Made by a program: the position numbers and the translations under genes. From Candidatus Parcubacteria bacterium (lineage in GTDB: Bacteria; Patescibacteriota; Minisyncoccia; Phycocordibacterales; Phycocordibacteraceae), in assembly GCA_034666125.1 (NCBI GenBank), contig JAXDML010000010.1, positions 150,037-214,036 of the forward strand: 64,000 nucleotides of DNA. Reading direction: 5' to 3'. The notes beneath the pieces were generated by a model. It had not been told where the DNA came from. It did not search any database and saw only the letters and a list, made by a program, of their open reading frames with translations. Position 1 is the stretch's first letter. Every line of letters begins with the position of its first letter. Of this stretch, positions 37,373 to 54,148 are shown one piece after another.

Positions 37373-37624
37373 CTGATAGCCGGTTGATGTCTCATCCCGA
37401 TCGCGCCGGAGAGGGTTTACCGCATCTCTCCCGAAGGTTCGATGCAGGACCGGACTCCAACACTCGCTTACAAGACCCGGTTCTCAATCGATAGGCTGCT
37501 TTTGGCCGAAGCCTCGAACAGTTATCTACCGACCCTGCCCGAGGCCGAAGCCAAGGGCTAAGTTCGAGTATCGCGCCTGCCGCAAAACCCGGCAACTGTG
37601 GATACTGTTTATAAGGTGGGGACA

Positions 37625-37690
37625 AAAAATATAATAGGGAAAAGCCGTTTCTTCAACGCGGCTTGATATCCCAGGTTTGAAGAAGCGGCT
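37625..37690 (-). terminator. Long hairpin terminator downstream of the minus-strand gene 37692..37922
   Basis: AGCCGTTTCTTCAA...TTGAAGAAGCGGCT: a 13-bp stem with one mismatch. On the minus strand it is followed by TTTTCCCTATTATATTTTTTG. Confidence 0.5.
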
Positions 37691-37691
37691 T

Positions 37692-37922
37692 TCAACTCAG
37701 CCCGGGGATGTGCAGGTCCCCCTCCACGAAGAGCCAGAAAATGAGCCCGGCGACGACGACGATCAGCGATGTCTCGGGCCATGGCAACCCTATCCAATGG
37801 CAGATCAGCGCGATGAGGGCCAGAAGGATTAGTCCCCAGATGGTCGGGCCTAGACTGTTACCCCTCAACATGATGATCAGCGTCCAGATTGCGCACAACG
37901 CAAAGGGCAGGTACTGGGTCAC
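37692..37922 (-). CDS. Small membrane protein (2 TM)
   Basis: 76 aa, hydrophobic. Confidence 0.35.
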   Translation of the reverse strand: MTQYLPFALCAIWTLIIMLRGNSLGPTIWGLILLALIALICHWIGLPWPETSLIVVVAGLIFWLFVEGDLHIPGLS

Positions 37923-38118
37923 GGTGACCTCCTTTCGTTTCAGTACCCTATGACTGTACGACTTACAAAGTAGAGAGTCAATAGAGAAGAGAATCGTATC
38001 AAAAGGAAAAAACTATCACATTCAACAGGGAGGCAAAGAAGACGGATGGCCGTTTTCCTTACAATGGCGACACGTGACCATAGGCATGTCGAGTGGCGGG
38101 GAAAGGCCCGAACCGTAT

Positions 38119-38292
38119 TTATATCTGAGGCGGAGTCTTCTTCTTGCTCTTCACTACGCTGACGATGCCGATAATTACCACTACGAGTCCGAGCAACTGC
38201 GCTCCGGGACTATCATCGATTCCGCCGTATACGAACATGAATGCTCCGAAAGCTATCGCGAGAATGGAACATAGCAACCTTCCTTTATTCAT
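38119..38292 (-). CDS. Small membrane protein (57 aa, 2 TM), not in the supplied ORF track
   Basis: Manual translation: MNKGRLLCSILAIAFGAFMFVYGGIDDSPGAQLLGLVVVIIGIVSVVKSKKKTPPQI. Confidence 0.3.
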   Translation of the reverse strand: MNKGRLLCSILAIAFGAFMFVYGGIDDSPGAQLLGLVVVIIGIVSVVKSKKKTPPQI

Positions 38293-38433
38293 ATAAAGAT
38301 CCTACCAAATGGGGAAATAAAAGAAAAAGGGCCCGGTATTTACTCCGGGACAGGGAAGTATACAAAAGGAAAAGGCCATCTGGGGGGAGACGACCGATTC
38401 CTTTGGTCCTCTCCCGGCTGATGGCCTTGGGCG

Positions 38434-38676
38434 TCAGTCCTCCTTGGTCGACGCCGCCGCTTCGAGCCGCTGCGCCACGTGCTCGATGTAGAGCAGGATG
38501 GCGCAGAGCATGAAGCCCAGTGTGATGACGACGAGCACCGCACCCCCGCCGATCTTGATGAAGCTCTGGTTCGGCGACGCCAGGACGATGGTGGCGAAGA
38601 AGGCGAAGATCAGCGCCATGACGACGTAGGTCGCGCTATCTTTGGCACCCCTGGCAATTCTTTCCGACTTGGACAT
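38434..38676 (-). CDS. Small membrane protein (2 TM)
   Basis: 80 aa, with an N-terminal charged segment then two TM helices. Confidence 0.4.
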   Translation of the reverse strand: MSKSERIARGAKDSATYVVMALIFAFFATIVLASPNQSFIKIGGGAVLVVITLGFMLCAILLYIEHVAQRLEAAASTKED

Positions 38677-38773
38677 CTTTCTCTCCTTGAAACATCAGTG
38701 GATTCATAGGCAGATTGGCACATATAGCCTACTTTTGTCAATCCAGCAGGGAAGTCAGATCTATACTGGAGGG

Positions 38774-38947
38774 ATGGAGAGAAAATGCGATGGGTGCGGA
38801 AATGAGATGCGTAGGATCGGTTCTTTTGCTCGAACAAAACGAGAAGGAGAGCGCTCATTCAAGAGCGACGGCTCGGTGCAATACCAGTGTATCAACGAAG
38901 TTTGCTCTGAGTACGAGAAAGTAGTGACGATTCAGCCGGGGGAGTAA
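38774..38947 (+). CDS. Small zinc-ribbon protein
   Basis: MERKCDGCGNEM...CINEVCSEYEK: two CxxC pairs. It sits at the beginning of the low-GC island. Confidence 0.35.
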   Translation: MERKCDGCGNEMRRIGSFARTKREGERSFKSDGSVQYQCINEVCSEYEKVVTIQPGE

Positions 38948-39517
38948 CCGGGTTGCGCGAAGTGGGGTTAATTCTTTGTTTCTAGAAGAGGGCATAGACT
39001 TGGACGACTCAAAGAAGTCTTGAGGAAAACTTGAGAACCTCTTCTGTAGGGTAGGGGAGTCCCCGGCACTTAGATCGGGGACGTGAGTAACTGCAGATTA
39101 CCGCTATGACGAAGGTAAAAGCGTGGCATTCGGCCAGGGAGACTGACCGTCAGGTATACCACGACAACGATGCGTGCACAGAAGGGAACAACATTGAAGA
39201 GAAGTACCGCCGGGAAGGTACTGACAATCGTCCTCAATGTGACCACTGTAGACGCCTCAGTTAAGGGTTTGTAGCGGAGTCTGCCCGGACGTAGCATCCC
39301 TGATACTTCTTCGGGAGGTCTGGGTGATCGCTCCTCTGGCACTCCCCGTGCAACCAGAACCATCGTCCCGTCTTGTCTTCGTCGGCAGCCGGGACGATGG
39401 TCTTTTGTATTACTGAGAGCTCGTAGTGAAGTCCGTCGTGTATGTAGGTGTCATCCTCTTCGGCCTCCGTCTTAGCCGCGCAGTAGATTTGACCGTTTTT
39501 TCGTATCCGTAGAGCCA

Positions 39518-39541
39518 TAGGGTAGGGAAGTCAGGTATAAT
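39518..39541 (+). promoter_or_regulatory. Island promoter motif copy 1: TAGGGTAGGGAAG-N5-TATAAT, followed by an ORF-free structured region
   Basis: Direct read. Nothing codes for >1 kb downstream. Confidence 0.45.
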
Positions 39542-39762
39542 GGGGGTGTAAGGTCAAGTCGAGCAAAGTTTAGTAAAGTCGAGTTAAGCAGATGAACTAT
39601 GGGCCTCGTGCCCTGCCCTCGCTTGCGAGGAAAAAGAGACCTTAGACCTGGGAACCTAGATCAGTAACATGGCTCCGCGCTCCAAAAGTCCACGCGCGTG
39701 GCAGGGAAGAGTTCGTTTGTCGTTACTGACCTAATCACTCCCAGGTCTAAACTCTATTTAAG

Positions 39763-39844
39763 TACAACGCACAATATCTGGATCAAATATTTCTGTCTTT
39801 TGTCAAGGCTTTGGGGCTCATTATTGAAAAGTGGGGAGACCCTT
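39763..39844 (+). repeat. 82-bp direct repeat, copy A (partner at 42953..43035)
   Basis: ACAACGCACAATATCTGGATCAAATATTTCTGTCTTTTGTCAAGGCTTTGGGGCTCATTATTGAAAAGTGGGGAGACCCTTA. Differs from copy B by 1 substitution and 1 indel. Confidence 0.9.
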
Positions 39845-40109
39845 AGAACGATCTAGGGGAGGCTCGGCAAGAAGAGAAATATGTTGTAGTTTGGACGCGA
39901 AAATCGTCCACAAGTTGTCCACTTAGGGTCGCGCTTGCGTCAAAATAGCCTCGGGTTAGGATACTTGGAGGAGAGTGGTTACCTTCCTTTTCCACTCCTC
40001 TGAAACGGTCAGTCCGGCCTTTTTATCAGACAACTACTAGCTCGCGGGCTCTAAATCCCAGAAAGGGGTTATTTTTCGTCCTTGTGCGTTCAGAACTTTG
40101 AAAACTTGA

Positions 40110-40214
40110 GTATTGAAGTGTGCCCCGACCGGGAATCGAACCCGGATCATTTCCTGAGAGAGGGAACGCCCTTTCGGGTGGAGTTTTCTAGACTCTTGCT
40201 CTATCCATTGAGCT
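40110..40214 (-). tRNA. tRNA-like gene with a ~34-nt insertion between anticodon stem and T-arm (apparent anticodon AGA); possible intron-containing or degenerate tRNA
   Basis: On the minus strand: perfect 7-bp acceptor (GCCCCGA/TCGGGGC), canonical D-arm (GCTC-AATGGATA-GAGC), anticodon stem-loop AGAGT-CTAGAAA-ACTCC, and a perfect T-arm (CCGGG-TTCGATT-CCCGG). A 34-nt segment with two hairpins (CCC-GAAA-GGG and TTCC...GGAA) sits where the 4-5 nt variable loop should be. Confidence 0.45.
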
Positions 40215-40909
40215 ATCGGGGCACGCTTCAGTACTCAAGATGCTTATGAGATGGGCAGTAGGTCGAAACCTTTTCGGCACACTGCCCAGCCCGTAAGGAC
40301 TGGGTAAATCTCTGGCGAGATTTAGGAAAGGGATCGGGTATTACCTGGTCCTTTTTCCGTTATCATTTCGCTCGCGGATGGTAGTGTCGGGGAACTTGTC
40401 GTTCACCCATTCACGGACATACCTTCCGGTCTTGGCGCTGCGATAAGAGTAGGGAATAAGCCTAGTCGTTAGTCGCGTCTAAACACCCGCATTGTCACTG
40501 CGGGGCCACTTTTCTCGGGAGACCGACCTCCGTCGCCTGCCGCTACGTATCGGCGGGGTATAGTGAGAAACGACACTTGTATCCGATACAAATAGAACCC
40601 ATCCCGACATCTGGCGTAGGCGCTCTCCCTTTCGGGTATCACGCCATACTGGCGAGTGGTCTCTTGAAACCTACGCCAGATGTCGAAACAGGTTCTCTGT
40701 TTCGGGAGAGCATATGAGGGGGACCAACCCCTGTTTATGAAAGTACCGCCCAGCGATTGAGCGTAGCTTTAGTATAACCGAACCGCGCCAAGCTCGTCTT
40801 GGGGATAGGGGTCGCTCCGAAACAGTCCGGCTATAAGGCAAGGGCAAATTGAGCGCTCCTTCTTGGTCCAGGTATTGTGCGATACAGCGATATAAACCGA
40901 GAAGGGAAG

Positions 40910-41125
40910 TTAACCTTTCAGTTTCTTCAGAGCGGCCTTCATGATTTTCTTACGTCCTTCACTCGGGCTGATCTCACGTGCCGCTTCGAAAAGGGCTTCT
41001 TTAGAGGCTTTCTTGGTCGCTTCCGCGAGCTTCGCCAGTTGCTTCACCGCGAAGTCAACCTCCCACTTCTGCTTAAAGGCTATAAGGTTGCGGTCTTCTT
41101 TCACTTTCTTTGGGTCGTCGGCCAT
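40910..41125 (-). CDS. Small basic lysine-rich protein (module 1)
   Basis: 71 aa, MADDPKKVKEDRNLIAFKQKW.. Preceded on its strand by the conserved CAGAGTCCGTATTTGGC motif and TATACT immediately before the ATG. Confidence 0.4.
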   Translation of the reverse strand: MADDPKKVKEDRNLIAFKQKWEVDFAVKQLAKLAEATKKASKEALFEAAREISPSEGRKKIMKAALKKLKG

Positions 41126-41142
41126 AAGTATAGAGTTACTAA

Positions 41143-41177
41143 TACCCCTTAACCCTATCAGAGTCCGTATTTGGCGG
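41143..41177. repeat. Island repeat family 2, copy 1 (CTAYCAGAGTCCGTATTTGGC-GGGGAGGG)
   Basis: Direct read. Partner at 44046..44080. Confidence 0.8.
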
Positions 41178-41189
41178 GGGAGGGTAGTC

Positions 41190-41567
41190 CTACTTTCCCT
41201 GAAGCTTCTTGAGCTCTTTAGTGAGCTTTTCTATCTGTTTCAGGAGCTCGTCGATTCGCTTCTGGTTCTTAGAGACGGCGGGACCGTTCGCCTTACACTC
41301 GCCCCCTTTGGTTAGGTAGTAGCCTGCGTTGCAACTGAACTTACAAGTGCTTTTGGCGGTTATGAGAACGGTCGCGTTCTTGGGAGCACTCTTCGTACAG
41401 GCTTTGAGGGCCTTGTTCTCGCAAGATCTGAGCTCGATCTTCTGACTCGCGGTCGGATTCGGTCCGAACGAAGTACGCATCGATGCGCAGCTGGAAGTGT
41501 TAAATGCCGCGTGTGCAGGCACCGACAAAAGAAATACAGCAATTAGCCCTATAAGGGTCTTTTTCAT
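41190..41567 (-). CDS. Secreted Cys-rich protein with C-terminal coiled-coil (paralog of 44659..45027)
   Basis: Signal peptide MKKTLIGLIAVFLLSVPAHAA, 10 Cys, and a C-terminal KRIDELLKQIEKLTKELKKLQGK. Confidence 0.5.
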   Translation of the reverse strand: MKKTLIGLIAVFLLSVPAHAAFNTSSCASMRTSFGPNPTASQKIELRSCENKALKACTKSAPKNATVLITAKSTCKFSCNAGYYLTKGGECKANGPAVSKNQKRIDELLKQIEKLTKELKKLQGK

Positions 41568-41736
41568 AGTGGAAGGTTTAAGTGTCTAAACGGTGCACCG
41601 CCCGAGGGTATCCCGGAAACCTTCCACGGAAACCGGGACCTGAACTCAGCCGGTGCATTGGTGGAAGGTTATATGTGGCCCTCTAGGGTACTGAACCTCA
41701 GTATACAACGGCTCCTTTTGAGGAAACAACGGGTCG

Positions 41737-41760
41737 TGGGGTAGGGGAGGCCTTATACTT
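41737..41760 (+). promoter_or_regulatory. Island promoter motif copy 2: TGGGGTAGGGGAG-N5-TATACT, 5 nt before the ATG at 41766
   Basis: Direct read. Confidence 0.45.
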
Positions 41761-41765
41761 TGGGG

Positions 41766-42614
41766 ATGGTCGATTTCCTATATAACTGGCAGACCCTGCT
41801 GGGCTCTTTGCTGGGAGCAGGCGTCCCATTGTCTTTACTGCTCGTCGGTAGGTTTTATTTTCAGAGACGGGATCACTTACGATCTCTGCATAAATTTGTG
41901 CTCCTTGCGAGCAATAACCTGATTGAGATAGATAGAACCGTTAGGGAGTTCAGGGACATTCGTATCGAGAAGCTCCTCTCAGACCTGGCGCGGGACCTGG
42001 AGGCGAACGAACCAAAATTCGTGGTGCCAATGGCGTATTTTCCACTTCAATCAGTCTTACGTTTACCAGACGACCTAATTAATCAGTCCACTGAAAGTGG
42101 GTATGTTGACACATGGGGACTCGAAGTTCTCTCGAAGTCCCGCGATCTTGAGAAGATAATGGACGACCTCCAGAGACAGTTCGAAGCGACTCTGGCTATG
42201 AATAAGGAATTAACTTTCTTGCTGTCGAATAAAATTGACGAAAAGGATAGAGAAGCCGCCCTAAGGCATTCGAGAGGCCTTATTTCCAGTCTGCGCCAAC
42301 AAATTACAGATTACGCAATCGTTCTCGAAAGAGACTTCTTTGGAAAGAACGTGCCTATCTATCTAAAGAGTCTCGCCACAACGTTGGCGGTCATAGATGA
42401 ATACAACCGAATTGGTTATATGTCTTGGAAATGGAAGTTCCGGATAGGCTTTAAGTGCTACAGAAATAAGGAATCGTATTTGCATGCAAAGGCCAACATC
42501 ATGAAAAAGATCGATCTTTACCTAAAAGAGAAAGTAGACGCAAAAATTGCCAGTACATTAGAACTGCTTACGCAGAGTCAATCGACATCTGTAGTGGTCC
42601 GTCAGGAGAGCTGA
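41766..42614 (+). CDS. Hypothetical protein with N-terminal TM helix
   Basis: The ORF as called starts at TTG 41760; first ATG at 41766 (MVDFLYNWQTLLGSLLGAGVPLSLLLVG..). Helical, with no family recognised. Confidence 0.5.
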   Translation: MVDFLYNWQTLLGSLLGAGVPLSLLLVGRFYFQRRDHLRSLHKFVLLASNNLIEIDRTVREFRDIRIEKLLSDLARDLEANEPKFVVPMAYFPLQSVLRLPDDLINQSTESGYVDTWGLEVLSKSRDLEKIMDDLQRQFEATLAMNKELTFLLSNKIDEKDREAALRHSRGLISSLRQQITDYAIVLERDFFGKNVPIYLKSLATTLAVIDEYNRIGYMSWKWKFRIGFKCYRNKESYLHAKANIMKKIDLYLKEKVDAKIASTLELLTQSQSTSVVVRQES

Positions 42615-42952
42615 TAGTCCAAATAGTGCTCGGGTAATGTCTGACCAAAAGGGCAGGGGAGTCAGCCTTAGACACCCCTAAAGGCTGATCTTCTTCTTTT
42701 TTGTTCATAGGGTAGGGAAGTCAGGGTGTGAGCCCTGAAAAGCCAGCCTGATTTTGCTACTATTCTCGTGGGGTAGGGAGACAAGTCCCTACCCCAGTCA
42801 GTTACGGCCATAGAGGGGACCCAGATTCATGGACATCCTCGAACTGATCCTTATCTACCTGATTCTTAAAAAGATCCTGTAGAGAAGGGAGTACGGACCG
42901 CGTTACAAGCGCGGTTTCTGCTTTCGGGCTGGCTTTTGAAGGTTCAAATCAA

Positions 42953-43035
42953 ACAACGCACAATATCTGGAACAAATATTTCTGTCTTTTGTCAAGGCTT
43001 TGGGGCTCATTATTGAAAAGTGGGGAAGACCCTTA
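42953..43035 (+). repeat. 83-bp direct repeat, copy B; overlaps the 5' end of ORF 43000..43530
   Basis: Near-identical to 39763..39844. Confidence 0.9.
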
Positions 43036-43530
43036 AAGCAATTCGAAGCAGCCTCGCCGAAAACAGAAGTGTGTTCTAGTTTGACGCATCTTCAGCGAAG
43101 ATTTAGGCTTAATGTTACAAACTTGAAGAACACCAAGAAAAAGAAGGTCCGGACAAGACCACATACCCGTACTGATGTGATTTCAGACACGGAAAGGCTG
43201 GAGATCCACTACTGGACCTTAGGAAGTAGGGTGACTAGATTTGCTGTTTGCTACTGCTGCGAGATCGACGGGGAATGGGTGAGTATCACTTGGTGTGATG
43301 ACGCGCATCTCGAAAAAGGAAGGTATGTCGGCAAAGGCCGAAAAGGGCATTGCCACAGTTTCTCGGCCCAGGGTGGCAAACTTGTAGAAAACGAGTATCT
43401 TTTAGGTCTGGGGACTCCGGCTGAGCATCTGACTGAGGTTCTGAATAATTTCAAGAAGAATCACGAGCAAATACGGGCTCAGTATATGAAGGCTGTGGAG
43501 AAAGCCGCTAGACAGGCAAAGAATAGGTAA
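43000..43530 (+). CDS. Hypothetical Cys/His-rich protein (start uncertain; ORF as called begins at TTG inside the repeat)
   Basis: VCYCCEIDGEWVSITWCDDAHLEKGRYVGKGRKGHCHSF suggests metal binding. The lysine-rich N-terminus may not be translated. Confidence 0.4.
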   Translation: MGLIIEKWGRPLKQFEAASPKTEVCSSLTHLQRRFRLNVTNLKNTKKKKVRTRPHTRTDVISDTERLEIHYWTLGSRVTRFAVCYCCEIDGEWVSITWCDDAHLEKGRYVGKGRKGHCHSFSAQGGKLVENEYLLGLGTPAEHLTEVLNNFKKNHEQIRAQYMKAVEKAARQAKNR

Positions 43531-43540
43531 GAATATAGAT

Positions 43541-43801
43541 ATGGCTGCTACTAACAAAAGGATCGTAAGAAAGAATCTGACCTGCTCAGTGGCTTTTAAC
43601 GAATACTTAATCAAGAACTCTGGTAAGAGAATCCTGCCTAATGGAGCAACCGTAGTTTTTAGTGATACGAGAGACGCCGCCTTTTCGGCTGCGAATAGAT
43701 TACTTTGTAATAGCATAGTCAGAAGTGGGGAAAGTTGCTACATAGCAGAAAAAAGCGGCAGGTCTTGGAATGTAGATAGAATATCTCCGGTCAGCAGATA
43801 G
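43541..43801 (+). CDS. Hypothetical protein
   Basis: 86 aa with no motifs. Confidence 0.3.
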   Translation: MAATNKRIVRKNLTCSVAFNEYLIKNSGKRILPNGATVVFSDTRDAAFSAANRLLCNSIVRSGESCYIAEKSGRSWNVDRISPVSR

Positions 43802-43860
43802 AGGTAGTTGTCTAAACAGAAAAGCCGCCCTACGGCGGTTCTTTTCTTGGAGGAGGGGAG

Positions 43861-44013
43861 TTACTTCTTCCCGCGAGGCTTGTTGGCTGCGTTATCAAGA
43901 GCAACTGCCGCTAACGTCTTCACTTGGGCACTTGTTGGCTTGATCGCACCACTGAGAACCTTCGAAGCCAGGGTCGCATTCTTCGAGGAGGTCACGTCAT
44001 CTTTCTTTGCCAT
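43861..44013 (-). CDS. Small basic lysine-rich protein (module 2; 50 aa, not in ORF track)
   Basis: Manual translation MAKKDDVTSSKNATLASKVLSGAIKPTSAQVKTLAAVALDNAANKPRGKK. Preceded by repeat family 2, copy 2. Confidence 0.3.
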   Translation of the reverse strand: MAKKDDVTSSKNATLASKVLSGAIKPTSAQVKTLAAVALDNAANKPRGKK

Positions 44014-44045
44014 AACTGTAGTGGTTAACTAATAATCTCCTATAA

Positions 44046-44080
44046 CTCTACCAGAGTCCGTATTTGGCCAGGGGAGGGGA
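44046..44080. repeat. Island repeat family 2, copy 2
   Basis: CTACCAGAGTCCGTATTTGGCCAGGGGAGGGG. Confidence 0.8.
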
Positions 44081-44089
44081 TAACGGGAG

Positions 44090-44674
44090 TTAGTCGTCTC
44101 CAATCCTCCCGGCAGTTAATCTGCTTAACTCTGCCTTCCATTTCGCCCGGGCAGCTGCATTGGCTGATACTGTGACCGATATATCGCTTGGTATCGGGTC
44201 GGCATCCATCTTCTGTATTTCGGGGTTCGAGATCCTCTCGCTAAGAGGCGAGTAACTGCTCAGTAACTCGTTTGTGCCGAGGTTCTGTATGAAGTAACTT
44301 GTCTCAGTAATCCAACTGCGCTCCCCAGTACTCATCACTTGGAACGAGTCTTCTGTAGTGCTGTATCCGCCCACACACTCTTTGAGTTCAGGACTGAACC
44401 CGACAAGGAAACTACTCATGTCCATACGAACGACCATTCTCTCTGGGTACCCGTTTGTTATGGCTTTCTGGCTATAGAAGTCCTGGATCCCAGCCGTACG
44501 CTCACGGAATGCGTCTAGTTTCTGAGAACAGTCTTTCGAGTCGGCACTGCCTAACGTCTTTGGAGTCGAACTGCCAATGGCGTAAACCGTAATTGCAAAA
44601 ATCAAGAGGACGACACACGCGCCCAGGGCGAATCCCTCAAAGGAGATTTTCCTCATAGCTAGAAGGAGCCACAA
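44090..44674 (-). CDS. Membrane-anchored/secreted hypothetical protein
   Basis: Probable start at MRKISFEGFALGACVVLLIFAITVYA (signal anchor). No family. Confidence 0.45.
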   Translation of the reverse strand: MWLLLAMRKISFEGFALGACVVLLIFAITVYAIGSSTPKTLGSADSKDCSQKLDAFRERTAGIQDFYSQKAITNGYPERMVVRMDMSSFLVGFSPELKECVGGYSTTEDSFQVMSTGERSWITETSYFIQNLGTNELLSSYSPLSERISNPEIQKMDADPIPSDISVTVSANAAARAKWKAELSRLTAGRIGDD

Positions 44675-45027
44675 GCCTGTACCATACCGTTAGATAGGTA
44701 GCTGCATACGGACGTCTGGGTCCCCAATTGCTTGTCGATCTCCTGTATCTCTTTCGCCGCAGCGTTCCTCTGCTGTGCGGTTACCTTCATATTCCGGTTC
44801 AGTTTGACGAGCTCCGCTTTGCGCCGCTCAAGCTTCTCAGTCTTAGCCGAGGTCTTAACTGGGGTCTTTTTGTCGATCTGAACGACCGACCTTCCTTCAA
44901 GAGCAGAGACACGTTTCTCAAGGGCCAGGAGCCTTGAAGCGAGAGAACCGATAGAGTCAGGGGCTGCGTACGTGAAGGCGGGCACGATCAGGACGCCCAG
45001 AACGAAGCCCGCAAGGGTCTTTTTCAT
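44659..45027 (-). CDS. Secreted coiled-coil protein with C-terminal Cys pair (paralog of 41190..41567, domains in the opposite order)
   Basis: Start at MKKTLAGFVLGVLIVPAFTYA (signal peptide), coiled-coil LASRLLALEKRVSALEGR.., and C-terminal ..VCSYLSNGMVQACGSF. The upstream extension of the ORF as called is rejected. Confidence 0.45.
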   Translation of the reverse strand: MKKTLAGFVLGVLIVPAFTYAAPDSIGSLASRLLALEKRVSALEGRSVVQIDKKTPVKTSAKTEKLERRKAELVKLNRNMKVTAQQRNAAAKEIQEIDKQLGTQTSVCSYLSNGMVQACGSF

Positions 45028-45260
45028 AGGGAAGTTTGCGTGAGGTTTCGTGGAATAAACGCACCGCCCAAGGATGGAATCTCCGAGCAAACTTCCCAGA
45101 AAGCCGGAGACCCCAAGGAACTTGGGCGGTGCGGTCGGGAAGTTTGCTGCTATGGGTGGTGTCACTACCACGATACAACAGGGCAGACCCCTTGTAAATA
45201 CTAGCCTGGGGACACATTTCACGTCCCTAAAGTTTTTCTAAAGGCGTTATCAACTGGAAA

Positions 45261-45284
45261 TAGGGCAGGGAAGTGTGGTATAAT
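45261..45284 (+). promoter_or_regulatory. Island promoter motif copy 3: TAGGGCAGGGAAG-N5-TATAAT, 8 nt before the ATG at 45293
   Basis: Direct read. Confidence 0.45.
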
Positions 45285-45292
45285 GCAGAAGC

Positions 45293-45538
45293 ATGGACTT
45301 GAATAAACAAGAGAAAACCATGGCTGACGTGATACTCGTGTCCTACAATCCAGCGTTTTTCATGCTTGGAATGCAGCACGGGGAATCAGTCTCGGTGTAC
45401 ACCACTACCCCAGAAGGGGCTAAGGCGTTCGCCGAGAACCTTACGAAGCGTGTGGCTGAGTACGAATCCACGATACGTAAGATTGATTCCTCGGGTCTAC
45501 AGTTAGGGACCGTGTCACCGATCCAGCCTCGCAAATAA
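45293..45538 (+). CDS. Hypothetical protein
   Basis: 81 aa with no motifs. Confidence 0.35.
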   Translation: MDLNKQEKTMADVILVSYNPAFFMLGMQHGESVSVYTTTPEGAKAFAENLTKRVAEYESTIRKIDSSGLQLGTVSPIQPRK

Positions 45539-45640
45539 AGCTTTTTGTTCCTGTTACTTTAGAGAGTCCTTCTTTCATATTTCTACATCGCACAATATCT
45601 GTTTTGCGTAATACAAATACGTAAAGCACGCAAAGGCAGA

Positions 45641-45826
45641 TTAGGACTTTGCCCTTGGAGAGAGACTCTCAAGTAGTTTAGTGACTTGACTTACCATCTG
45701 TTCAACGACTGAACGCTTCATATGGAAGCTTGTAACGCGTCCTTGTTTGTTATGAAGATGAAGAAGTATCTCATCTTCAGCCTCCCTAACGTCCATTTTG
45801 ATATCTATGATAGGCAAGTTTTCCAT
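45641..45826 (-). CDS. Hypothetical small protein
   Basis: 61 aa. Confidence 0.25.
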   Translation of the reverse strand: MENLPIIDIKMDVREAEDEILLHLHNKQGRVTSFHMKRSVVEQMVSQVTKLLESLSPRAKS

Positions 45827-45995
45827 AGATCCATTATACTCGTTTATCCGAGATATGGCTCACTTATTGGTTTCTTTAGTACCAAGACCTACTCAACTTA
45901 TATGAAGAGCTGTGCGGGTCTTGAAGACTGCCAATAGGTGTTGGACTTCCGGTGAAGAATGAGACTAGTTTCTGAAGATTCCAAGGCTCCAGCTA

Positions 45996-46607
45996 TCAAG
46001 TAAGGGGTTGCGACTCCCCTACCTTCAAATTTGGAAGGAATGTGTTGAAAATAGAAAGCCTAAAACTATCTGAGAAATGCTTCCATTCTTCCATTAAGGA
46101 TCGGAGAGTCTCGAAGCCCGCTTTTATAAGAAGCTGGTCTCTCTCGTCGTCAGGATTCTTGCCACCGTGAAAGAGGTTATTTCGTATTGAATGCCAGAAC
46201 TCAATCATATTTCTCCAGTCTTCCAGATTACGAATCCTTCCCTGTTGGTCACAAAAATGACTTTCCTGGTCCTGTACGTTCTGACAGTCACAATCCCAGT
46301 ACCAGATCGCATGAACATCGTCCGTATTTTTGTCGAGCTCGCCCAAGGGACGTTCATCCAGCTCATTTTTAATAGACTGCCAAGACTGCTGAAGATGGTT
46401 ATCCCTAGCAACTAAGTCAAGGTACATATTTCGCACCTCTGCATCGTATTTAAGAGCTCGAATTGCGCTTGAGTCTGTCACTCTGTTTGTAAACTTAATT
46501 CGCTTCAAATATGCAATAAATGCCAGGTACTCGAAAACATACTTTGAAAAGTAGTCCTCACTACCGGCCTGGGCGTGCCAACTTCTTATTAATTGTTCGA
46601 AGTCCAT
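45996..46607 (-). CDS. Hypothetical protein with HEPN-type Rx4H motif (candidate RNase), third gene of a compact 3-gene operon
   Basis: WHSIRNNLFHGGK contains R-N-x3-H, as in HEPN catalytic motifs. 203 aa, helical. Starts 9 nt after the stop of the 4-TM gene. Confidence 0.45.
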   Translation of the reverse strand: MDFEQLIRSWHAQAGSEDYFSKYVFEYLAFIAYLKRIKFTNRVTDSSAIRALKYDAEVRNMYLDLVARDNHLQQSWQSIKNELDERPLGELDKNTDDVHAIWYWDCDCQNVQDQESHFCDQQGRIRNLEDWRNMIEFWHSIRNNLFHGGKNPDDERDQLLIKAGFETLRSLMEEWKHFSDSFRLSIFNTFLPNLKVGESQPLT

Positions 46608-46616
46608 TAGCAGTCT

Positions 46617-47066
46617 CTACTTAATTGATAGGTTAAAGATTCTCCTTGTAATCCAAATACAGCGTCCAGTTTTTATAATAACTAAAAAAACAATGGCCAA
46701 GAACATGAACATTTCTACCTTCGGAGATGCGTCTATGTTTAGTACCTCTCTTAGGATCAGAATAATAACTCCAAAGGATATCCAAAAAAGTGCGTTTACA
46801 ATTATATCCATTACAGTTCGAAACGACTTTGTCTTTTTGAAATAAACTAATTTTTCACTGTCGTTAAAAGAGAAAATTATAGCCATGAAAGCCATAACAA
46901 ACCCCAAGAGTCCAATCAGTGACTCAGTCATATTAAGTAAAAACTCGTTGCTTAACGAGGAAGACAAATTGAAACGGAATAAGAAATACGTTATTCCACC
47001 CGCGCATAGAAAAGTGAGTAAGGTATCTATAGGCTGAAAGAATTTTTGATACCAATTCTTTAACAT
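46617..47066 (-). CDS. Small 4-TM membrane protein (middle gene of the 3-gene operon)
   Basis: 149 aa with four hydrophobic helices. ~33% GC. Starts 3 nt after the stop of the upstream 306-aa gene. Confidence 0.55.
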   Translation of the reverse strand: MLKNWYQKFFQPIDTLLTFLCAGGITYFLFRFNLSSSLSNEFLLNMTESLIGLLGFVMAFMAIIFSFNDSEKLVYFKKTKSFRTVMDIIVNALFWISFGVIILILREVLNIDASPKVEMFMFLAIVFLVIIKTGRCIWITRRIFNLSIK

Positions 47067-47069
47067 ATT

Positions 47070-47990
47070 TTATTCACCTATAATACTTAGAAGATCGCCC
47101 CGCTTCTTTTTGTAGGCAGCGCAGATATTTTCGAACATATCTTTCGGGTCAACTTCTCGAGCGTTGTTTAATTTAGTAGTTCTAACTTCGTACACCATTT
47201 TGTCTTTGAGGAGGTCAAAGTCTTGAATTTTTTGTGTCTGAGAGTCCCAGGCTTTGATATTAAAACGATCAAATTGCTCACCGGGGTAGAAACGTCCCAC
47301 ATACCCCTTTAAGTTTTTAAGGAATGTCTTTCGTTCAGTGCCCTTAAGAATCGGCTTCCTGCCGTTCTTTTTTGGTCTTAGTACTAGTTCGATTTCTTCC
47401 AAATCTCCAAAGGAAGACGCAGTCCTGAGGGATGAATAAAGATTCGAGTCCAGATTTTTTATACTGTCGACGTGATTCTTATGTACCATTAGGGAGATTG
47501 ATGTAATATCTCCCATTCTACTAATTTGTCGGAGCGCGTCCTTATTAAATAGAATATTAAAGTATAAGAAAAGTGGATTCTTTACTCCAATATTTACGTT
47601 CTCCATCTTTTCGTTCAGATACTTAGCAAGTGTGCCAATGCGCGGTCCATAAAAGTTATATTCCATAGCTACGATGCCCTTCTCAGGGAAATACACAAAG
47701 TGTGTAGGTATGACCAGACCCTCGCTATCTTTAAGTTTTAGGGGATGAACTTTTGTGTCGTCAACCGACGCGACAGAAGGAAAGTCACTACCTCTCCATT
47801 CGTATAAACTTCCGTAAATTACCCCCTTGCCCGTGTCTTTTACGGTGCAGAATATCTTTCTGTCCCTCTCTCTTTCCCAGAAGATATCTTTTTGATCCAG
47901 TGAACTTAATTCTTTAACAACGTCAACAAAAGTGCCGTTCATAACAGCCGATCGGTAGAAGTAGACCTGTCGCACAACAGTTTCCTTCAT
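47070..47990 (-). CDS. Hypothetical 306-aa cytoplasmic protein (first gene of the 3-gene operon), unknown function
   Basis: No TM and no confidently recognisable catalytic motif. A weak GS..DD nucleotidyltransferase-like pattern (YGSLYEWRGSDFPSVASVDD) does not fit the canonical spacing. Lowest GC in the window. Confidence 0.5.
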   Translation of the reverse strand: MKETVVRQVYFYRSAVMNGTFVDVVKELSSLDQKDIFWERERDRKIFCTVKDTGKGVIYGSLYEWRGSDFPSVASVDDTKVHPLKLKDSEGLVIPTHFVYFPEKGIVAMEYNFYGPRIGTLAKYLNEKMENVNIGVKNPLFLYFNILFNKDALRQISRMGDITSISLMVHKNHVDSIKNLDSNLYSSLRTASSFGDLEEIELVLRPKKNGRKPILKGTERKTFLKNLKGYVGRFYPGEQFDRFNIKAWDSQTQKIQDFDLLKDKMVYEVRTTKLNNAREVDPKDMFENICAAYKKKRGDLLSIIGE

Positions 47991-48315
47991 GAGGCCTTCA
48001 TTTTACCACCAGGGTGAATCTTGTACAGACGGACCCAATGTCAAGCCTTTAAAAGGCTTGTGAGCTCCTTTCGCTTTGATAGAAACTTTGCTTCTATATT
48101 TCCGTGACTGATTTCAAAACACGTTAGGATCTACTTGACCTAAACTAGGCTGTTTGGCCTGGCGTGGTCTAAAAACGCGACAAACATAGAAAACCCGTCA
48201 TCAGGGCGTTTGTCGCGTTATAGGGGTAAACTCCTATAGGGGCTTCGGCCCTACTGGTGGCGGGTTTTGTGTTTGCCCACCTCCCCGCCCCGTCTTACTT
48301 CCCTAGTAAACGAAC

Positions 48316-48798
48316 ATGGCACAAGAAACTACTGTTACTGAAGACACTAAGGTCTGTCCGAAATGTGCGACAAATATCCCCAAGCAAGCAATACGCTGCC
48401 CTAACTGTAGGAGCAAGATAGGAACCTCGAGACTTGGAAAGCTTCTTGCGATCTTCTTCGGGCTCTTCATTGTCATGATGGTCATCTCAGTTCAAAGTGC
48501 CACCCCTACCCCACGAGTCCCTGGACCTGAGACGGAACCGGGCTGGGCTGACTCTGCCGCAGGAAAACTTTGTTCCAAGCACCCTGACTGGCAACCGGAA
48601 GAATGCGTTAAGGTTGCTGGAAAGAAGATCTGGATCGGTATGGACTACGATATGCTCGTATATCAATACGGAAAGCCAGATTCTATAAACCCTTCTAACT
48701 ATGGAGGCGGAACAAGATACCAATACTGTTGGCATGATTACTCCCCTTCTTGCTTTTATGACGAGAATGGGGATAACAAGATAGACGCTTATAACTAA
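48316..48798 (+). CDS. Zinc-ribbon / TM / extracytoplasmic domain protein
   Basis: CPKC...CPNC zinc ribbon, one TM (LLAIFFGLFIVMMVISV), and a C-terminal Cys-containing domain. Confidence 0.5.
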   Translation: MAQETTVTEDTKVCPKCATNIPKQAIRCPNCRSKIGTSRLGKLLAIFFGLFIVMMVISVQSATPTPRVPGPETEPGWADSAAGKLCSKHPDWQPEECVKVAGKKIWIGMDYDMLVYQYGKPDSINPSNYGGGTRYQYCWHDYSPSCFYDENGDNKIDAYN

Positions 48799-48886
48799 GC
48801 TGTTTATAATTATTGGAACAAAGACGCGTGCGTAACGAGTCAATGGAAGTCTTTGGTGAGGAAATTCCCTTATCAGTTAGGTTCCA

Positions 48887-49258
48887 TTGACTATGTCAAC
48901 ATCCATAAAAACGAAGACATACGAGTGTCTTACAAGTGTATTTAGCTCCGAATATATAGAGATTGCGAAAGATCTCTATATACGAATGGTGCGTGACTAT
49001 AGACCAAGTACCTCGGGAGAACTTGCTCTAATTGAGATGGCAGTACGATCTCTCGTACGGTCTATGCATTTATCGAAAGAAATTAGCGGTCAGATAGATT
49101 GGGAAGGCTGCTCGAAGACACGCACGATCGTTTCTTATATAGACCTATTAAGTAAGCAAGTCGATCGAGAAGATAGGAAGTTTATTCAGCTTATAAACGA
49201 GCTCAAGAACTTTACCCCTAGTGTAATTCGACTTAAGGGTACTGTTCTCCCTACTTAA
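48887..49258 (+). CDS. Hypothetical protein
   Basis: 123 aa with no motifs. Confidence 0.35.
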   Translation: MTMSTSIKTKTYECLTSVFSSEYIEIAKDLYIRMVRDYRPSTSGELALIEMAVRSLVRSMHLSKEISGQIDWEGCSKTRTIVSYIDLLSKQVDREDRKFIQLINELKNFTPSVIRLKGTVLPT

Positions 49259-49368
49259 AATCGTACTAATTCGTTCCGAATAAGGTGAGGTTGATATACT
49301 GGACTCGGTAGGCTATAAGTGGAATAAGGCAGGGACAAAATGTGTTCTAAAATAGACTGATTCTCGAC

Positions 49369-50004
49369 TCACTTGTTTATCTCAAGGAAGATTGTCGCAA
49401 GCAAGTCCATCATGGTGGCAGCCGTAGGTTTAGACTCGGGAGTTTCGGATGCACACGCATTATCTGCCCACAGTCCCTCCTTATTCACTCGTGCTGTTGT
49501 CTCTGCCTCTTTAAACTGAGCCTGGTATTTGTACGGTAAGTTGTATGTATATTCCTGGGCAAACCCTTCCTGGATCATCTTTAAATTAAGGTTAGATCCG
49601 TTTTCAAGAAAAATATATCCAAGTCTCCTATTGTATTTGTCGTAGGTACCCTGGGATGGGTCTGTCTCGACATACACTTTTGCGTCAGTAAGGAGCGCCT
49701 TGGCTCGATTAGAGGCCTCGCGACCAAAACACTCGACCGCTTGAGTTGGATGAACTGTTTCAGGAGTATCTATACCAATGAGTCGGAATGTCTGAACTTC
49801 GTTATCTATGCGAATTTTTACCGTATCTCCATCTACGACGTCAACAACAGAGTAGAGACTGCTAGGTGCTTGGAAGCCTTCCTCAACAGATTGAGTTTGT
49901 TTCGCTACTTCCCCTCCCGATCTATCTGTAAGAAATAGTAAGCCCCCACCAACAAAAAGGATGCCAATGCAACATGCTGTTAATTTTTTGAGAGCCGCAC
50001 TCAT
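49369..50004 (-). CDS. Secreted thermonuclease (staphylococcal nuclease/SNase family)
   Basis: Signal anchor; SNase motifs VVDGDTVKI, FRLIGIDTPE, RRLGYIF, GLW. Confidence 0.75.
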   Translation of the reverse strand: MSAALKKLTACCIGILFVGGGLLFLTDRSGGEVAKQTQSVEEGFQAPSSLYSVVDVVDGDTVKIRIDNEVQTFRLIGIDTPETVHPTQAVECFGREASNRAKALLTDAKVYVETDPSQGTYDKYNRRLGYIFLENGSNLNLKMIQEGFAQEYTYNLPYKYQAQFKEAETTARVNKEGLWADNACASETPESKPTAATMMDLLATIFLEINK

Positions 50005-50019
50005 TCCTAGAGTATATCT

Positions 50020-51015
50020 CTAGGGCGTGTGATTCATGGGTAACCGAAATTCACCCATATCCTCCCCTATCTGATACTGAGTGGCAGAAATAACCTTTAA
50101 GTCCCCCAAATCGAGCATTTTGTGATGGTTAGGACATAGCACGAGCATATTTGATGGGAGGTCTGCACCAGGAAGTCGTTTGGCAATTGGCACAATGTGG
50201 GCTACTTCAGAATAAAGGTTTCCGCTTCTCTGTCTGAAGGTAAATCCACAAATTTGGCATTCGTTTTTATACTTCTCCTTCATCCGACGAACGAGAGATA
50301 CGTTGCGCTTAATAACGGTCACCTTCCTGGCTACAGATTCAGGCACGTCATCCGCATGACGTTGCTGCCATTCGAGTAGCAGTGAATCCTCTTCCTTATC
50401 TCGTGTAAGCGCGTCGACCTCCGCGAGTTCACTTGCAGTGAGGTCTTCCTTCCCACTAATACTATCGAGCAAAGCCACGTCTTTTGCCTTAAGTCCAGGA
50501 GAGTATGCGTCGAAGAATGAATCTAGACTTCCGTAAGTTGCATAGATCCTGTCCAAAGCACCTTCACGTAGACTTACGAAACCCTGAACAACCATCTTGT
50601 CGTCATAGGCTCCTAATTCGCGGATAATCTCAAGAGGAAGCTGAATTGGCCGAAGTTCGTCGAGAAAGAATAGGTATTCCCAGGTTTCTTCTTTTTGCGG
50701 GATATTGCCCCACAGAGCTCTCGCGATCTCGGCGCTCTGCTTTTTCAATATACATTTACCCGTATACACAAAAACTCCTTTTGCGTAAAAAAGAACACTG
50801 TCACCCGGTTGCATTTGATCCCAATAGAAGCGCCTCCCTTCTCCACTTCCCCATATATAAAGCTGGTCTTGTACACCCAGAGCCTGCTCTTCCTCGGTCG
50901 AGAGATATTGATGTATATGGTCACGTGGGTAACCGCTGGCAAGCGTTGCAATAAAGTTTGCCTGCGATGTTTCGTTGCTCCGAGGAGCCAGGTATATCTT
51001 TGGACGTTCAGCCAT
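50020..51015 (-). CDS. HNH endonuclease with N-terminal PUA-like (EVE/ASCH-type) domain, candidate modification-dependent nuclease
   Basis: Start at MAERPKIY. HNH: CQICGFTF..SEVAHIVPIA..N.LVLCPNHHKMLD. N-terminal GDSVLFYAKGVFVYTGK-type PUA-like pattern (fold assignment is inference). Confidence 0.65.
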   Translation of the reverse strand: MAERPKIYLAPRSNETSQANFIATLASGYPRDHIHQYLSTEEEQALGVQDQLYIWGSGEGRRFYWDQMQPGDSVLFYAKGVFVYTGKCILKKQSAEIARALWGNIPQKEETWEYLFFLDELRPIQLPLEIIRELGAYDDKMVVQGFVSLREGALDRIYATYGSLDSFFDAYSPGLKAKDVALLDSISGKEDLTASELAEVDALTRDKEEDSLLLEWQQRHADDVPESVARKVTVIKRNVSLVRRMKEKYKNECQICGFTFRQRSGNLYSEVAHIVPIAKRLPGADLPSNMLVLCPNHHKMLDLGDLKVISATQYQIGEDMGEFRLPMNHTP

Positions 51016-51116
51016 ATTTCCTTGCACAAAGGCTACGCCTGAACCGTAGTATGTCAATCGCCGCTGATTTGAGACAATCTTAAAAACAAAAAGATCACAT
51101 AGCGCGGACACCAACT

Positions 51117-51320
51117 ATGTCTCGGTCCCGGGAACGTATAGCCGAACATGTCGTTCAGCGCATAGCGCATCCGTATTTTCGGAGAAAGGTCGCGGAAGAA
51201 TTTCGGCAGGGCTTCCAGGGTTCTGTCGGTGACGACTTGCTCCATGCCGTGGTTCGCGAGAAGGAAGAAACCCGTAGTCGAGAGGGATTCGCGAACGGCC
51301 TCTGTAAACTAAGCCCCGAC
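51117..51320 (-). pseudogene. Fragment of a 2OG-Fe(II) oxygenase gene (DIOX_N region) truncated at the island junction
   Basis: The minus-strand translation ..STTGFFLLANHGMEQVVTDRTLEALPKFFRDLSPKIRMRYALND.. matches the N-terminal GFF(Q/L)VxNHG region of 2OG-dependent dioxygenases. A stop lies upstream and the low-GC island lies downstream; no HxD..H core is present. Confidence 0.4.
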
Positions 51321-51351
51321 CCATTAAAGAAACACCCCGAGCAAGCTCGGG
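51318..51351 (-). terminator. Rho-independent terminator downstream of pyrF
   Basis: CCCCGAG-caag-CTCGGGG. On the minus strand it is followed by TGTTTCTTTAAT. Confidence 0.6.
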
Positions 51352-51387
51352 GCGGCTTCCCTATGAGGGAAGACTCTCTTCTCCGCT

Positions 51388-52137
51388 TCACGCGGCCTTC
51401 GAGATCTCCTCGATGGTTCGCATGGCGGCGTCGTAGGGGTCCTTGGCATGGACGATCGGACGGCCGACCACGATGCGATCGGCACCGGCGGCGATGGCCT
51501 GGGCCGGGGTCATGATCCGGTTCCGGTTCTGGTCGCCCGGGTCGAGTGCCCAGATCGGCCGGATCGCCGGGGTATTGATGGTCATCGCGTTGCCGACGAG
51601 CTGCCGCAGCATTGCGGCTTCGGCACCGGAGGCGATCAAACCGTCAACGCCCGCTTCCTTGGCCATCTCCGCGAATTCGGCGACCGCCTGCTCGGTCAGT
51701 TCGCGGCGATACATCCTCGTCACGTCCCTGTCCTCGAGGCCGGTCAGGACCGTCACGCCGAGCACCTCCGTGTCCGGCAGAAGGGCCTTCAGAGCCGCCA
51801 TCCCCTTCACACCGGAGCCGCACATGACCGTGAGCAGGTCAGGACCGGCCTCGCGCAGGAATATGGCGTCGGTCTCGAGGGTCTCGCGGATGTCGCAGAG
51901 CTTCAGGTCCGCGAACACCCTGAGGCCGCGTTCGCGAAGCTCGCCGATCACACCATAGCCGAAAGCCCGGAGCGGCGCGTTCACTTTGAACGTGACGCCG
52001 GTTCTCCCGAGGCAGTCGGCAAGTGCGAGGACCTGCCGGTAAGCGACGGCGACTCCGTCGGGGCCCTCGGGCCTGAAGTCCGCCGCGACGATCAGGCGTT
52101 GTGCCGGCTCCAATGCCGGTCTCCCGTCCTTGCGCAT
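51388..52137 (-). CDS. pyrF: Orotidine 5'-phosphate decarboxylase
   Basis: Start at MRKDGRPALEPAQRLIVAADF. Conserved FKVN, FADLKLCDI, and IVGRPI motifs. The N-terminal extension of ORF 51388..52293 is rejected. Confidence 0.85.
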   Translation of the reverse strand: MRKDGRPALEPAQRLIVAADFRPEGPDGVAVAYRQVLALADCLGRTGVTFKVNAPLRAFGYGVIGELRERGLRVFADLKLCDIRETLETDAIFLREAGPDLLTVMCGSGVKGMAALKALLPDTEVLGVTVLTGLEDRDVTRMYRRELTEQAVAEFAEMAKEAGVDGLIASGAEAAMLRQLVGNAMTINTPAIRPIWALDPGDQNRNRIMTPAQAIAAGADRIVVGRPIVHAKDPYDAAMRTIEEISKAA

Positions 52138-52168
52138 TTCGTACCGTTCCTTTCTCGGCCGGTGGCCG

Positions 52169-54140: not shown

Positions 54141-54148
54141 TAGGAAGT

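Follow-up and report, generated by a model that had tools for sequence, protein, structure and literature searches.

The window analysed here, a 64,000-nucleotide stretch of contig JAXDML010000010.1 from a metagenome-assembled genome (MAG) of a Candidatus Parcubacteria bacterium (GCA_034666125.1), contains a low-GC segment within high-GC DNA, flanked on the left by clustered genes for small membrane proteins and on the right by pyrF, and referred to below as the island. It spans MAG locus tags QOE22_690 to _706 and comprises a left block (38.7-45.3 kb), with an aberrant tRNA gene, a structured stretch free of open reading frames (ORFs), a repeated motif and mostly unclassified genes, and a right block (~45.3-51.1 kb), with a RexA-like gene and its membrane partner, a LOOT RNA, a candidate type IV restriction endonuclease and a second nuclease; a relic of a 2-oxoglutarate (2OG)-Fe(II) oxygenase gene lies at the right edge. 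The initial annotation, which had described a low-GC accessory island without integrase, recognised neither the Parcubacteria host nor four of these features: the LOOT RNA, the candidate type IV restriction enzyme, the tRNA-like gene and the RexA-like pair. Coordinates of all features are collected in Table 1.

Table 1. Features of the low-GC island and of its right border, in window positions
Feature	Position	Strand	Description
Low-GC island	38690..51116		~12.4 kb, GC ~0.466 (length-weighted mean of four segment values)
Left-end small gene	38776-38947	+	57 aa, CxxC zinc ribbon
Island-only motif (A/C)ATAGGGYAGGGRAGTC	39046, 39516, 41736, 42647, 42706, 45259 (span 39046..45278)	+	exact copies in left block only
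Left-end small gene	39261-39518	-	85 aa
Decayed duplicate of DUF7718 promoter and 5' end (42953-43087)	39764..39898	+	frame runs into stop
Aberrant tRNA gene	40121..40222	-	Rfam tRNA 56.7 bits; not called by ARAGORN
ORF-free structured stretch	40223..40909		687 nt, between tRNA and next gene
Basic protein	40910-41125	-	71 aa
Basic protein	41190-41567	-	125 aa, secreted
284-aa (or 238-aa) protein	41760..42614	+	one N-terminal membrane span, no recognised family
Gene pair	43000..43801	+	DUF7718 (176 aa, Pfam 5.9e-6), then DUF5647 (86 aa, Pfam 1.2e-5)
Protein with N-terminal hydrophobic segment	44090-44656	-	188 aa
Protein with N-terminal hydrophobic segment	44659-45027	-	122 aa
Small gene at block boundary	45293-45538	+	81 aa
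Small gene at block boundary	45641-45826	-	61 aa
Candidate HEPN-type RNase	45996..46607	-	203 aa, R-x4-H motif RNNLFH
Multi-pass membrane partner of RexA-like protein	46617..47066	-	149 aa, directly downstream of RexA-like gene
RexA-like protein	47070..47942	-	290 aa
LOOT RNA (Rfam RF03000)	48137..48252	+	70.2 bits against gathering threshold 46.4, model positions 1-121, full-length
160-aa protein	48316..48798	+	N-terminal zinc ribbon (weak Pfam matches), one membrane span (hydropathy)
123-aa protein	48887..49258	+	no recognised family
Staphylococcal-type nuclease, secreted or membrane-anchored	49369..50004	-	211 aa, N-terminal hydrophobic segment (hydropathy)
Candidate type IV (modification-dependent) restriction endonuclease	50020..51015	-	331 aa, N-terminal YTH/EVE-like reader and C-terminal HNH
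2OG-Fe(II) oxygenase relic	51117..51320	-	partial N-terminal DIOX_N, frameshifted, no catalytic domain
pyrF intrinsic terminator	51333..51354	-	last intact host feature on the right

Composition, edges and assembly of the island

The GC content of the flanks is 0.607 (positions 1-37000) and 0.603 (51330-64000). Within the island it is 0.509 (38691-41200) and 0.487 (41200-45250) in the left half and 0.417 (45250-48420) and 0.450 (48420-51116) in the right half, and the minimum among 500-bp windows (0.350) is found at 46750-47249. Tetranucleotide frequencies, compared with those of the flanks in 2-kb windows, gave correlations of 0.78-0.95 outside the island and of -0.36 to 0.04 across 41-51 kb. 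GC content at third codon positions (GC3) is 0.38-0.67 for every gene from 38776 to 51015, compared with 0.80-0.88 in host-like genes (0.80-0.85 in the LOG-family gene, pyrF and pyrE), and UCU accounts for 21% of the serine codons in the island versus 4% in host genes. On this recalculation of GC and tetranucleotide composition the signature is not uniform and the segment is compositionally foreign. The low-GC segment that the initial annotation had drawn at 38690-51125 is thereby upheld, with edges at 38.69 and 51.12 kb by GC, tetranucleotides and GC3; the 33-48% GC given there applies to the right half but not to the left, which stays near 0.49-0.51.

The right edge is sharp (51.10-51.13 kb), with 100-bp GC values running from 0.42 through 0.55, 0.59 and 0.57 to 0.68 over 51.0-51.5 kb, and beyond the oxygenase remnant the high-GC housekeeping genes resume as had been noted before, pyrF and pyrE directly and then metK. 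The left edge is graded by plain GC and was resolved at ~38.69 kb by GC3 per gene. Two small membrane-protein genes to its left, at 37692-37922 and 38434-38676, have GC3 values of 0.81 and 0.88, respectively, indicating that both are native. Between these two native-looking genes, a gene at 38119-38292 (minus strand) encoding a 57-aa membrane protein with two spans has a GC3 of 0.57 and may represent a small separate insertion just outside the left edge.

GC3 is not homogeneous within the island either, ranging from 0.43 to 0.67 in the left block (GC ~0.49-0.51) and from 0.38 to 0.48 in the right block (GC 0.42-0.45). Compositionally it thus falls into two or more blocks and is a mosaic, the blocks probably differing in origin or age.

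A change of composition at both ends would also be produced by an assembly or binning chimera, in which low-GC contigs of another organism or phage had been joined to Parcubacteria contigs. In an independent Joint Genome Institute (JGI) assembly, 3300044738, the region is indeed split over three contigs, which points to branching in the assembly graph or to uneven coverage: the first stops at position 37323 of the window, Ga0467041_0001359 corresponds to 37344-48451 with 100% identity, and Ga0467041_0000140 starts at 48420. At the first break (37323/37344), 20 nt are missing immediately beyond the LOG gene; at the second (48420-48451), the contigs overlap by 32 bp within the zinc-ribbon gene. 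Since neither break falls at a compositional junction, a chimera is unlikely. The 38.69-kb junction is internal to Ga0467041_0001359, along with host-like genes of GC3 0.81-0.88, and the 51.12-kb junction is internal to Ga0467041_0000140, along with pyrF, pyrE and metK; moreover, the NCBI MAG contig (252,821 bp) runs through the whole region, and on a second contig pyrF and the HNH gene recur, largely among the same neighbours. We consider a chimera the least probable of the explanations weighed here, to the point of hardly deserving consideration, and the JGI breaks may instead reflect assembly-graph branching or uneven coverage, possibly due to strain heterogeneity.

The RexA-like pair, the LOOT RNA and other right-block genes

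The 290-aa protein matched the RexA model of PADLOC (3.6e-4), and among nine members of its family four match Pfam RexA and four match DUF6731. The structural neighbours of its structure model agree with those published for lambda RexA (PMC11077077), and the protein can be assigned to the RexA family. The 149-aa partner has three clear spans by hydropathy and a fourth, N-terminal span by reading of the sequence, comparable to lambda RexB, a 16-kDa protein with four predicted helices (PMC11077077). Pfam RexB was not matched by any of three partner-family members; the partner is like RexB in size and topology class without a sequence match and is therefore called RexB-like by position only. Compared with lambda RexA/RexB and the actinobacteriophage Rex-like pairs (PMC11077077), the window pair displays the same order, an approximately 290-aa soluble protein of RexA-like fold followed by an approximately 149-aa multi-pass partner, and it likewise occurs on phage-like contigs. 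It differs in that the RexA similarity is marginal, RexB similarity of the partner is not detectable, and the gene of the R-x4-H protein follows the pair. It also lacks an adjacent cI-like or Cro-like repressor, no helix-turn-helix repressor family being found in the neighbouring genes, and hence does not lie in a cI-type immunity region.

The partner gene adjoins the RexA-like gene in every context examined. These are marine Tara contigs (L037-L040), in which the RexA-like protein and the partner are 72% and 56% identical to those of the window, a bacterial MAG (L041; 47% and 41%) and two IMG/VR viral contigs (L042/L043; 31% and 26%); distant tblastn matches of the RexA-like protein were obtained in a Geoglobus provirus and a Pseudomonas phage. 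Tara contig L037, whose GC of 0.425 is close to the 0.417 of positions 45250-48420, carries the RexA-like pair together with large and small terminase genes, a ParB-type methyltransferase gene, a LOOT RNA and a tRNA-Ser. Genes for tRNA-Ser (GGA or GCT) stand directly after the RexB-like gene on two of these contigs (L037:7192-7281 and L039:2056-2146). Therefore, the Rex-like pair and serine tRNAs travel together in marine elements, and in the window they are associated only loosely.

The RexA-like gene also bears on the idea that the island has long been inherited vertically and owes its low GC to local mutation bias or relaxed selection. A graded left edge and a heavily eroded oxygenase remnant, which suggests age, would suit such a history. 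The gene is, however, 68% identical at the DNA level (72% as protein) to marine contigs of GC 0.40-0.43 and keeps a GC of 0.40 within a 0.60-GC genome; in addition, the tetranucleotide signature of the region is anticorrelated with that of the host, and serine codon usage is inverted relative to host genes. Old vertical inheritance is accordingly regarded as very improbable.

LOOT RNAs had been known only from marine metagenomes, with no organism assigned to them. The copy in the right block ends 64 nt upstream of the zinc-ribbon gene at 48316 on the same strand. Further copies were located at L037:1296-1427 (73 bits) and, by a scan of IMG/VR with a loose pattern, an energy filter and Rfam confirmation, on two viral contigs (L051:5922-6043 and L108:5520-5654), the former of which shares the terminase and methyltransferase module of L037. 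In three cases (window 48316, L037 1491 and L051 6089) the RNA is followed, 46-64 nt downstream and in the same orientation, by a gene encoding an N-terminally membrane-anchored protein, which suggests that LOOT is phage-borne and possibly a 5' leader. Relative to the LOOT motif known from the survey of Weinberg et al. 2017 (PMC5737381), the window copy is a full-length match above the gathering threshold, but it resides in a Parcubacteria chromosome, the other copies being on terminase-bearing or IMG/VR contigs. The presence of both the RexA-like pair and LOOT on terminase-bearing or viral contigs indicates that the two stem from the phage gene pool.

The 331-aa protein has a C-terminal HNH domain (Pfam HNH_2, 8.8e-9), in which C253, C256, H273, N289, C294, H297 and H298 are invariant in 31 sequences and which shows sequence similarity to the modification-dependent enzymes TagI and McrA. 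Its N-terminal part is a reader domain of the PUA superfamily (EVE/YTH/SRA-like), and the whole layout makes the protein a candidate stand-alone type IV restriction enzyme. The EVE/YTH-HNH and SRA-HNH enzymes VcaM4I (6yex), TagI (6ghs) and EcoKMcrA (6ghc) are organised likewise, with a PUA-superfamily reader followed by HNH; unlike the EVE domain of VcaM4I, the reader of the 331-aa protein is closest to the N-domain of archaeal T. gammatolerans McrB (6p0g), which reads 5-methylcytosine. Members of this family (~325-340 aa) are named from Magasanikbacteria, which belong to the Candidate Phyla Radiation (CPR), Parachlamydiales and Verrucomicrobiae, with at most 59% identity. The neighbouring 211-aa protein was assigned as a nuclease by Pfam SNase (1.1e-26), the NCBIfam thermonuclease family (1.2e-32) and the SNc+LTD model of PADLOC. 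The nucleases named in the initial annotation are thus real, both SNase and HNH being recovered by Pfam.

An R-x4-H motif is a hallmark of HEPN RNases. The 203-aa protein belongs to a family with 156 database representatives, and R142, L145 and H147 are invariant across 37 aligned sequences; it gave no match in Pfam, including the HEPN profile, and no PDB sequence match. From its R142-x4-H147 motif, it is considered a candidate HEPN-type RNase.

RNA features, motifs and small genes of the left block

The tRNA gene of the left block encodes an intact cloverleaf with the anticodon loop CUAGAAA, i.e. anticodon AGA, which would read the serine codon UCU. Its variable region begins with a CCCGAAAGGG hairpin, which we take to resemble one in the variable arm of E. 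coli tRNA-Ser, and contains a 31-nt insert folding into two extra hairpins (the second of 21 nt), giving six arms in total. The molecule differs from bacterial class II tRNA-Ser in its anticodon, AGA not being usual in bacteria, in its class I-type D-arm, in having A73 as discriminator and in the second variable-region hairpin. Like phage-encoded tRNAs, it lies on foreign DNA and reads a codon that is common in the element and rare in the host, as the UCU shares given above show, which is what would be expected of a mobile-element tRNA.

Next to it, the 687-nt stretch folds more stably than shuffled sequence on both strands (z -6.5 on the minus and -6.4 on the plus strand) and contains an inverted repeat of ~27 bp at 40594-40696. 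Sliding-window folding reached z values down to -6.5 and placed the longest strongly structured run of the island at 40.08-40.75 kb. The initial annotation had described long ORF-free structured stretches; this holds for 40223-40909 but was not confirmed for 39519-40120. No Rfam family covers 40223-40909 up to an E-value of 10; Pfam detected no remnant of a protein in any of its frames, and a search of the phage database gave no match either. Known large RNAs (GOLLD, ROOL, group I and II introns and RNase P) were considered for this stretch and set aside, as they yielded only short Rfam matches at chance level. No homologues were found for the stretch or for the tRNA, and neither has comparative support.

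The left block also has its own motif, with six exact matches to the core GGGYAGGGRAG, all within 39049-45273, whereas the remaining ~50 kb of the window lack it; allowing one mismatch, 18 matches were observed against a chance expectation of 4.4, and weaker copies occur at 46014 and 48501 (minus strand). A TATAAT or TATACT box follows ~5 nt after the copies at 39516, 41736 and 45259 and after a partial copy, CAGGGAAGTCA, at 38747, and a plus-strand gene follows those at 38747, 41736 and 45259. Identical 20-mers at 39516 and 42706 abut an ATG on the opposite strand. A scan with the sigma-70 consensus gave promoter-like sites no more numerous than in shuffled sequence. Judged from its position and associated boxes, the motif could serve as a private promoter or operator, and the repeat and promoter motifs attributed to the island earlier have a concrete counterpart in its six exact copies. 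Another repeat, the 18-mer TACA(A/T)CGCACAATATCTG, occurs in direct orientation at 39763-39780, 42952-42969 and 45584-45601 and inverted at 40869-40896, in each case intergenic and between gene groups, and could mark the junctions of modules or act as an operator.

Duplications are confined to regulatory and leader segments. In the decayed duplicate of the DUF7718 5' region the first 74 nt are 99% identical, and 137 nt are identical at 86%. Related 5' leaders, at 41568-41640 and 45028-45100 (minus strand), precede the genes at 41190-41567 and of the 122-aa protein. These share their first five codons (MKKTL), and the 3' arm of the predicted leader hairpin, which has a conserved GGGCGGUGC in its loop, ends one base before the AUG; the hairpin may be a cis-regulatory element. 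A duplication of the secreted proteins themselves was rejected, the two MKKTL proteins being dissimilar outside their leaders. What had been called duplicated modules thus survives for the leader and regulatory segments but not for the proteins.

With the exception of DUF7718 and DUF5647, most left-block proteins matched nothing in Pfam, PHROGs, PADLOC or NCBIfam. The layout of that pair is reminiscent of a two-gene toxin-antitoxin or defence module.

From these features a more far-reaching proposal can be made, namely that the left block preserves parts of an undescribed CPR mobile element with RNA working parts (a six-armed tRNA-Ser(AGA)-like molecule, a structured RNA of ~690 nt and a private promoter/operator motif) and that LOOT is a phage-borne 5' leader controlling genes of membrane-anchored proteins. 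We regard this combination as speculative and decidedly improbable.

Origin of the island and comparison with known systems

The oxygenase remnant, annotated as the 63-aa hypothetical protein QOE22_706 (51054-51245), reads on the minus strand ...RIPLDY/GFFLLANHGMEQVVTDRTLEALPKFFRDLSPKIRMRYALNDMFGYTFPG... after removal of one base at the GGG before GFFLLANHG. The repaired peptide matched Pfam DIOX_N with an E-value of 5.9e-6 and 27.4 bits, just over the family cut-off of 27.3, along positions 27-73 of the 117-position profile, and its weak PDB sequence matches (E 0.0045-0.9) are mostly Fe(II)/2OG oxygenases aligned around GFF..NHG. Its frame has a host-like GC3 of ~0.71 (hand count), enters low-GC DNA and stops at 51054. 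Neither a 2OG-FeII_Oxy match nor a catalytic double-stranded beta-helix with HxD...H was found in it, which identifies it as a pseudogene remnant; a protein-database search for an intact homologue returned only its own annotated ORF. Some 17 codons separate the pyrF terminator from the GFF motif, and the bacterial-type oxygenases matched have GFF..NHG at residues 34-40. Because of this short spacing and the frameshift, a single recent insertion is not the whole story, and the stump, eroded at both ends, is most plausibly what remains of a host gene that was largely replaced or deleted when the foreign DNA came or afterwards. The truncated 2OG oxygenase reported earlier at this edge is there, in that a high-GC DIOX_N fragment lacking HxD..H abuts low-GC DNA, but it is more decayed than a clean truncation.

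No match to an integrase, transposase or recombinase family was obtained for any called ORF in Pfam, PHROGs, PADLOC or NCBIfam, and no capsid, tail, terminase, lysis or replication gene was found, the PHROGs and Pfam matches being only to families of unknown function. A six-frame Pfam search of the ORF-poor 38.9-41.2 kb revealed no integrase remnant. In this respect the library and six-frame searches agree with the initial annotation, which had recognised no integrase, transposase or phage structural gene. Methyltransferase families were not matched by any island ORF. There is no boundary-spanning direct repeat of at least 16 nt, and the 3' end of the tRNA, which is located 1.4 kb inside the island and not at its border, is not repeated anywhere else in the window and was not matched in viral contigs. 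The DNA of 40.1-40.95 kb and 45.2-51.15 kb found no match among 50,697 phage records, nor did scans of viral contigs with the HNH, 203-aa and 238-aa proteins.

These results weigh on the main rival explanation, according to which all 12.4 kb descend from a single integration of a prophage or phage satellite, now decayed, of which the genes for integrase, replication and structure are gone and accessory ('moron') genes, the tRNA and small RNAs are left. RexAB-type genes are typically prophage-borne (PMC11077077), and the joint occurrence on contig L037, alongside terminase genes, of the RexA-like pair, LOOT and tRNA-Ser, the fit of the tRNA to the codon usage of the island and the common regulation implied by the shared promoter motif would all follow naturally from a single integration. 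It accounts less well for two blocks with distinct GC3 ranges, for the confinement of exact motif copies to the plus strand of the left block, for the failure to find an integrase remnant, an att-type direct repeat or a duplicate tRNA 3' end, and for the HNH family, whose member in the one other genome examined is solitary among housekeeping genes. Taken together, a single decayed prophage is unlikely, though it merits more credence than the other alternatives.

We therefore favour, with a probability of about 0.65, the reading that 38.69-51.12 kb is a mosaic of horizontally acquired, largely phage-derived DNA that has become fixed in the Parcubacteria chromosome and is immobile, no self-mobility machinery being present. 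As the blocks differ in GC3 and the exact motif occurs only in the left block, at least two acquisitions at a permissive site are favoured; phage-derived DNA probably entered there by recombination, either illegitimate or homology-assisted, and decayed afterwards. The left block would be a decaying piece of one mobile element, with genes sharing a promoter/operator motif and with a codon-matched tRNA, a large structured non-coding stretch and a pseudo-duplicate; the island-only motif, the internal duplication and the related leaders are the evidence that it is one unit. Downstream of pyrF, either the acquisition or a later deletion at the junction would have reduced a 2OG-Fe(II) oxygenase gene of the host to ~50 codons.

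The right block would constitute a defence cluster, to which the LOOT RNA is also counted. The YTH/EVE-like domain of the putative type IV enzyme would read a modified base and its HNH domain would cut the DNA, while the RexA-like protein, as a DNA-binding sensor, and its membrane partner may abort infection by collapse of the membrane potential, by analogy with lambda RexAB. Next to this pair, the R-x4-H protein would act as a candidate RNase, and the secreted SNase may degrade or scavenge extracellular DNA. These defence functions are inferred, as are the number and order of the acquisitions and the route of entry; directly shown are the foreign composition, the genes as identified by homology or fold, the oxygenase remnant and the connection of LOOT and the RexA-like pair with phages.

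Several points weigh against the mosaic interpretation. The nearest relatives by pyrF are Saccharibacteria, Adlerbacteria and Patescibacteria MAGs with 47-55% identity; with pyrF as the anchor, genome and metagenome contigs yielded nothing above 62%, the best value in metagenome contigs, and synteny with relatives is limited to pyrE-pyrF. Neither an empty site nor a variant strain was found that would demonstrate variability between strains. Among the island proteins looked up, those of the left block included, none has a member of its 90% cluster outside this sample, all named copies being annotated as hypothetical, and the two left-block proteins queried against phage collections (the 238-aa protein, and DUF7718 by tblastn) gave no match, so that the phage origin of this block is deduced from its organisation only. 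The oxygenase remnant, eroded on both sides, speaks for an old event more than for a recent insertion; an old event, however, is hard to square with a right block whose GC has not ameliorated, unless the two blocks came at different times.

CPR bacteria (Patescibacteria) have tiny genomes, mostly without CRISPR, and how they resist phages is still being worked out. The island provides one CPR genome with a compact set of phage-derived innate defence candidates: a modification-reading nuclease, a Rex-like pair, a protein with the HEPN-type motif and a secreted nuclease. The orphan LOOT RNA can now be placed in genomes, both in the chromosome of a Parcubacteria bacterium and on viral contigs with terminase genes, and its gene neighbourhood recurs, which makes its function testable.

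Genomic islands, some with restriction systems, have been reported by the hundreds in Patescibacteria MAGs (PMC12455944). The window island resembles these and other bacterial genomic and defence islands in its atypical composition, in restriction and abortive-infection-type genes placed by housekeeping genes and in a content of mostly hypothetical proteins that the family libraries searched do not match; it differs from classical genomic islands in having no integrase, no flanking direct repeats and a tRNA that is internal. It is in kind an ordinary genomic island with a few unusual passengers, the less ordinary of which are the Rex-like pair in a CPR genome, the placement of LOOT, the six-armed tRNA and the unclassified structured stretch.

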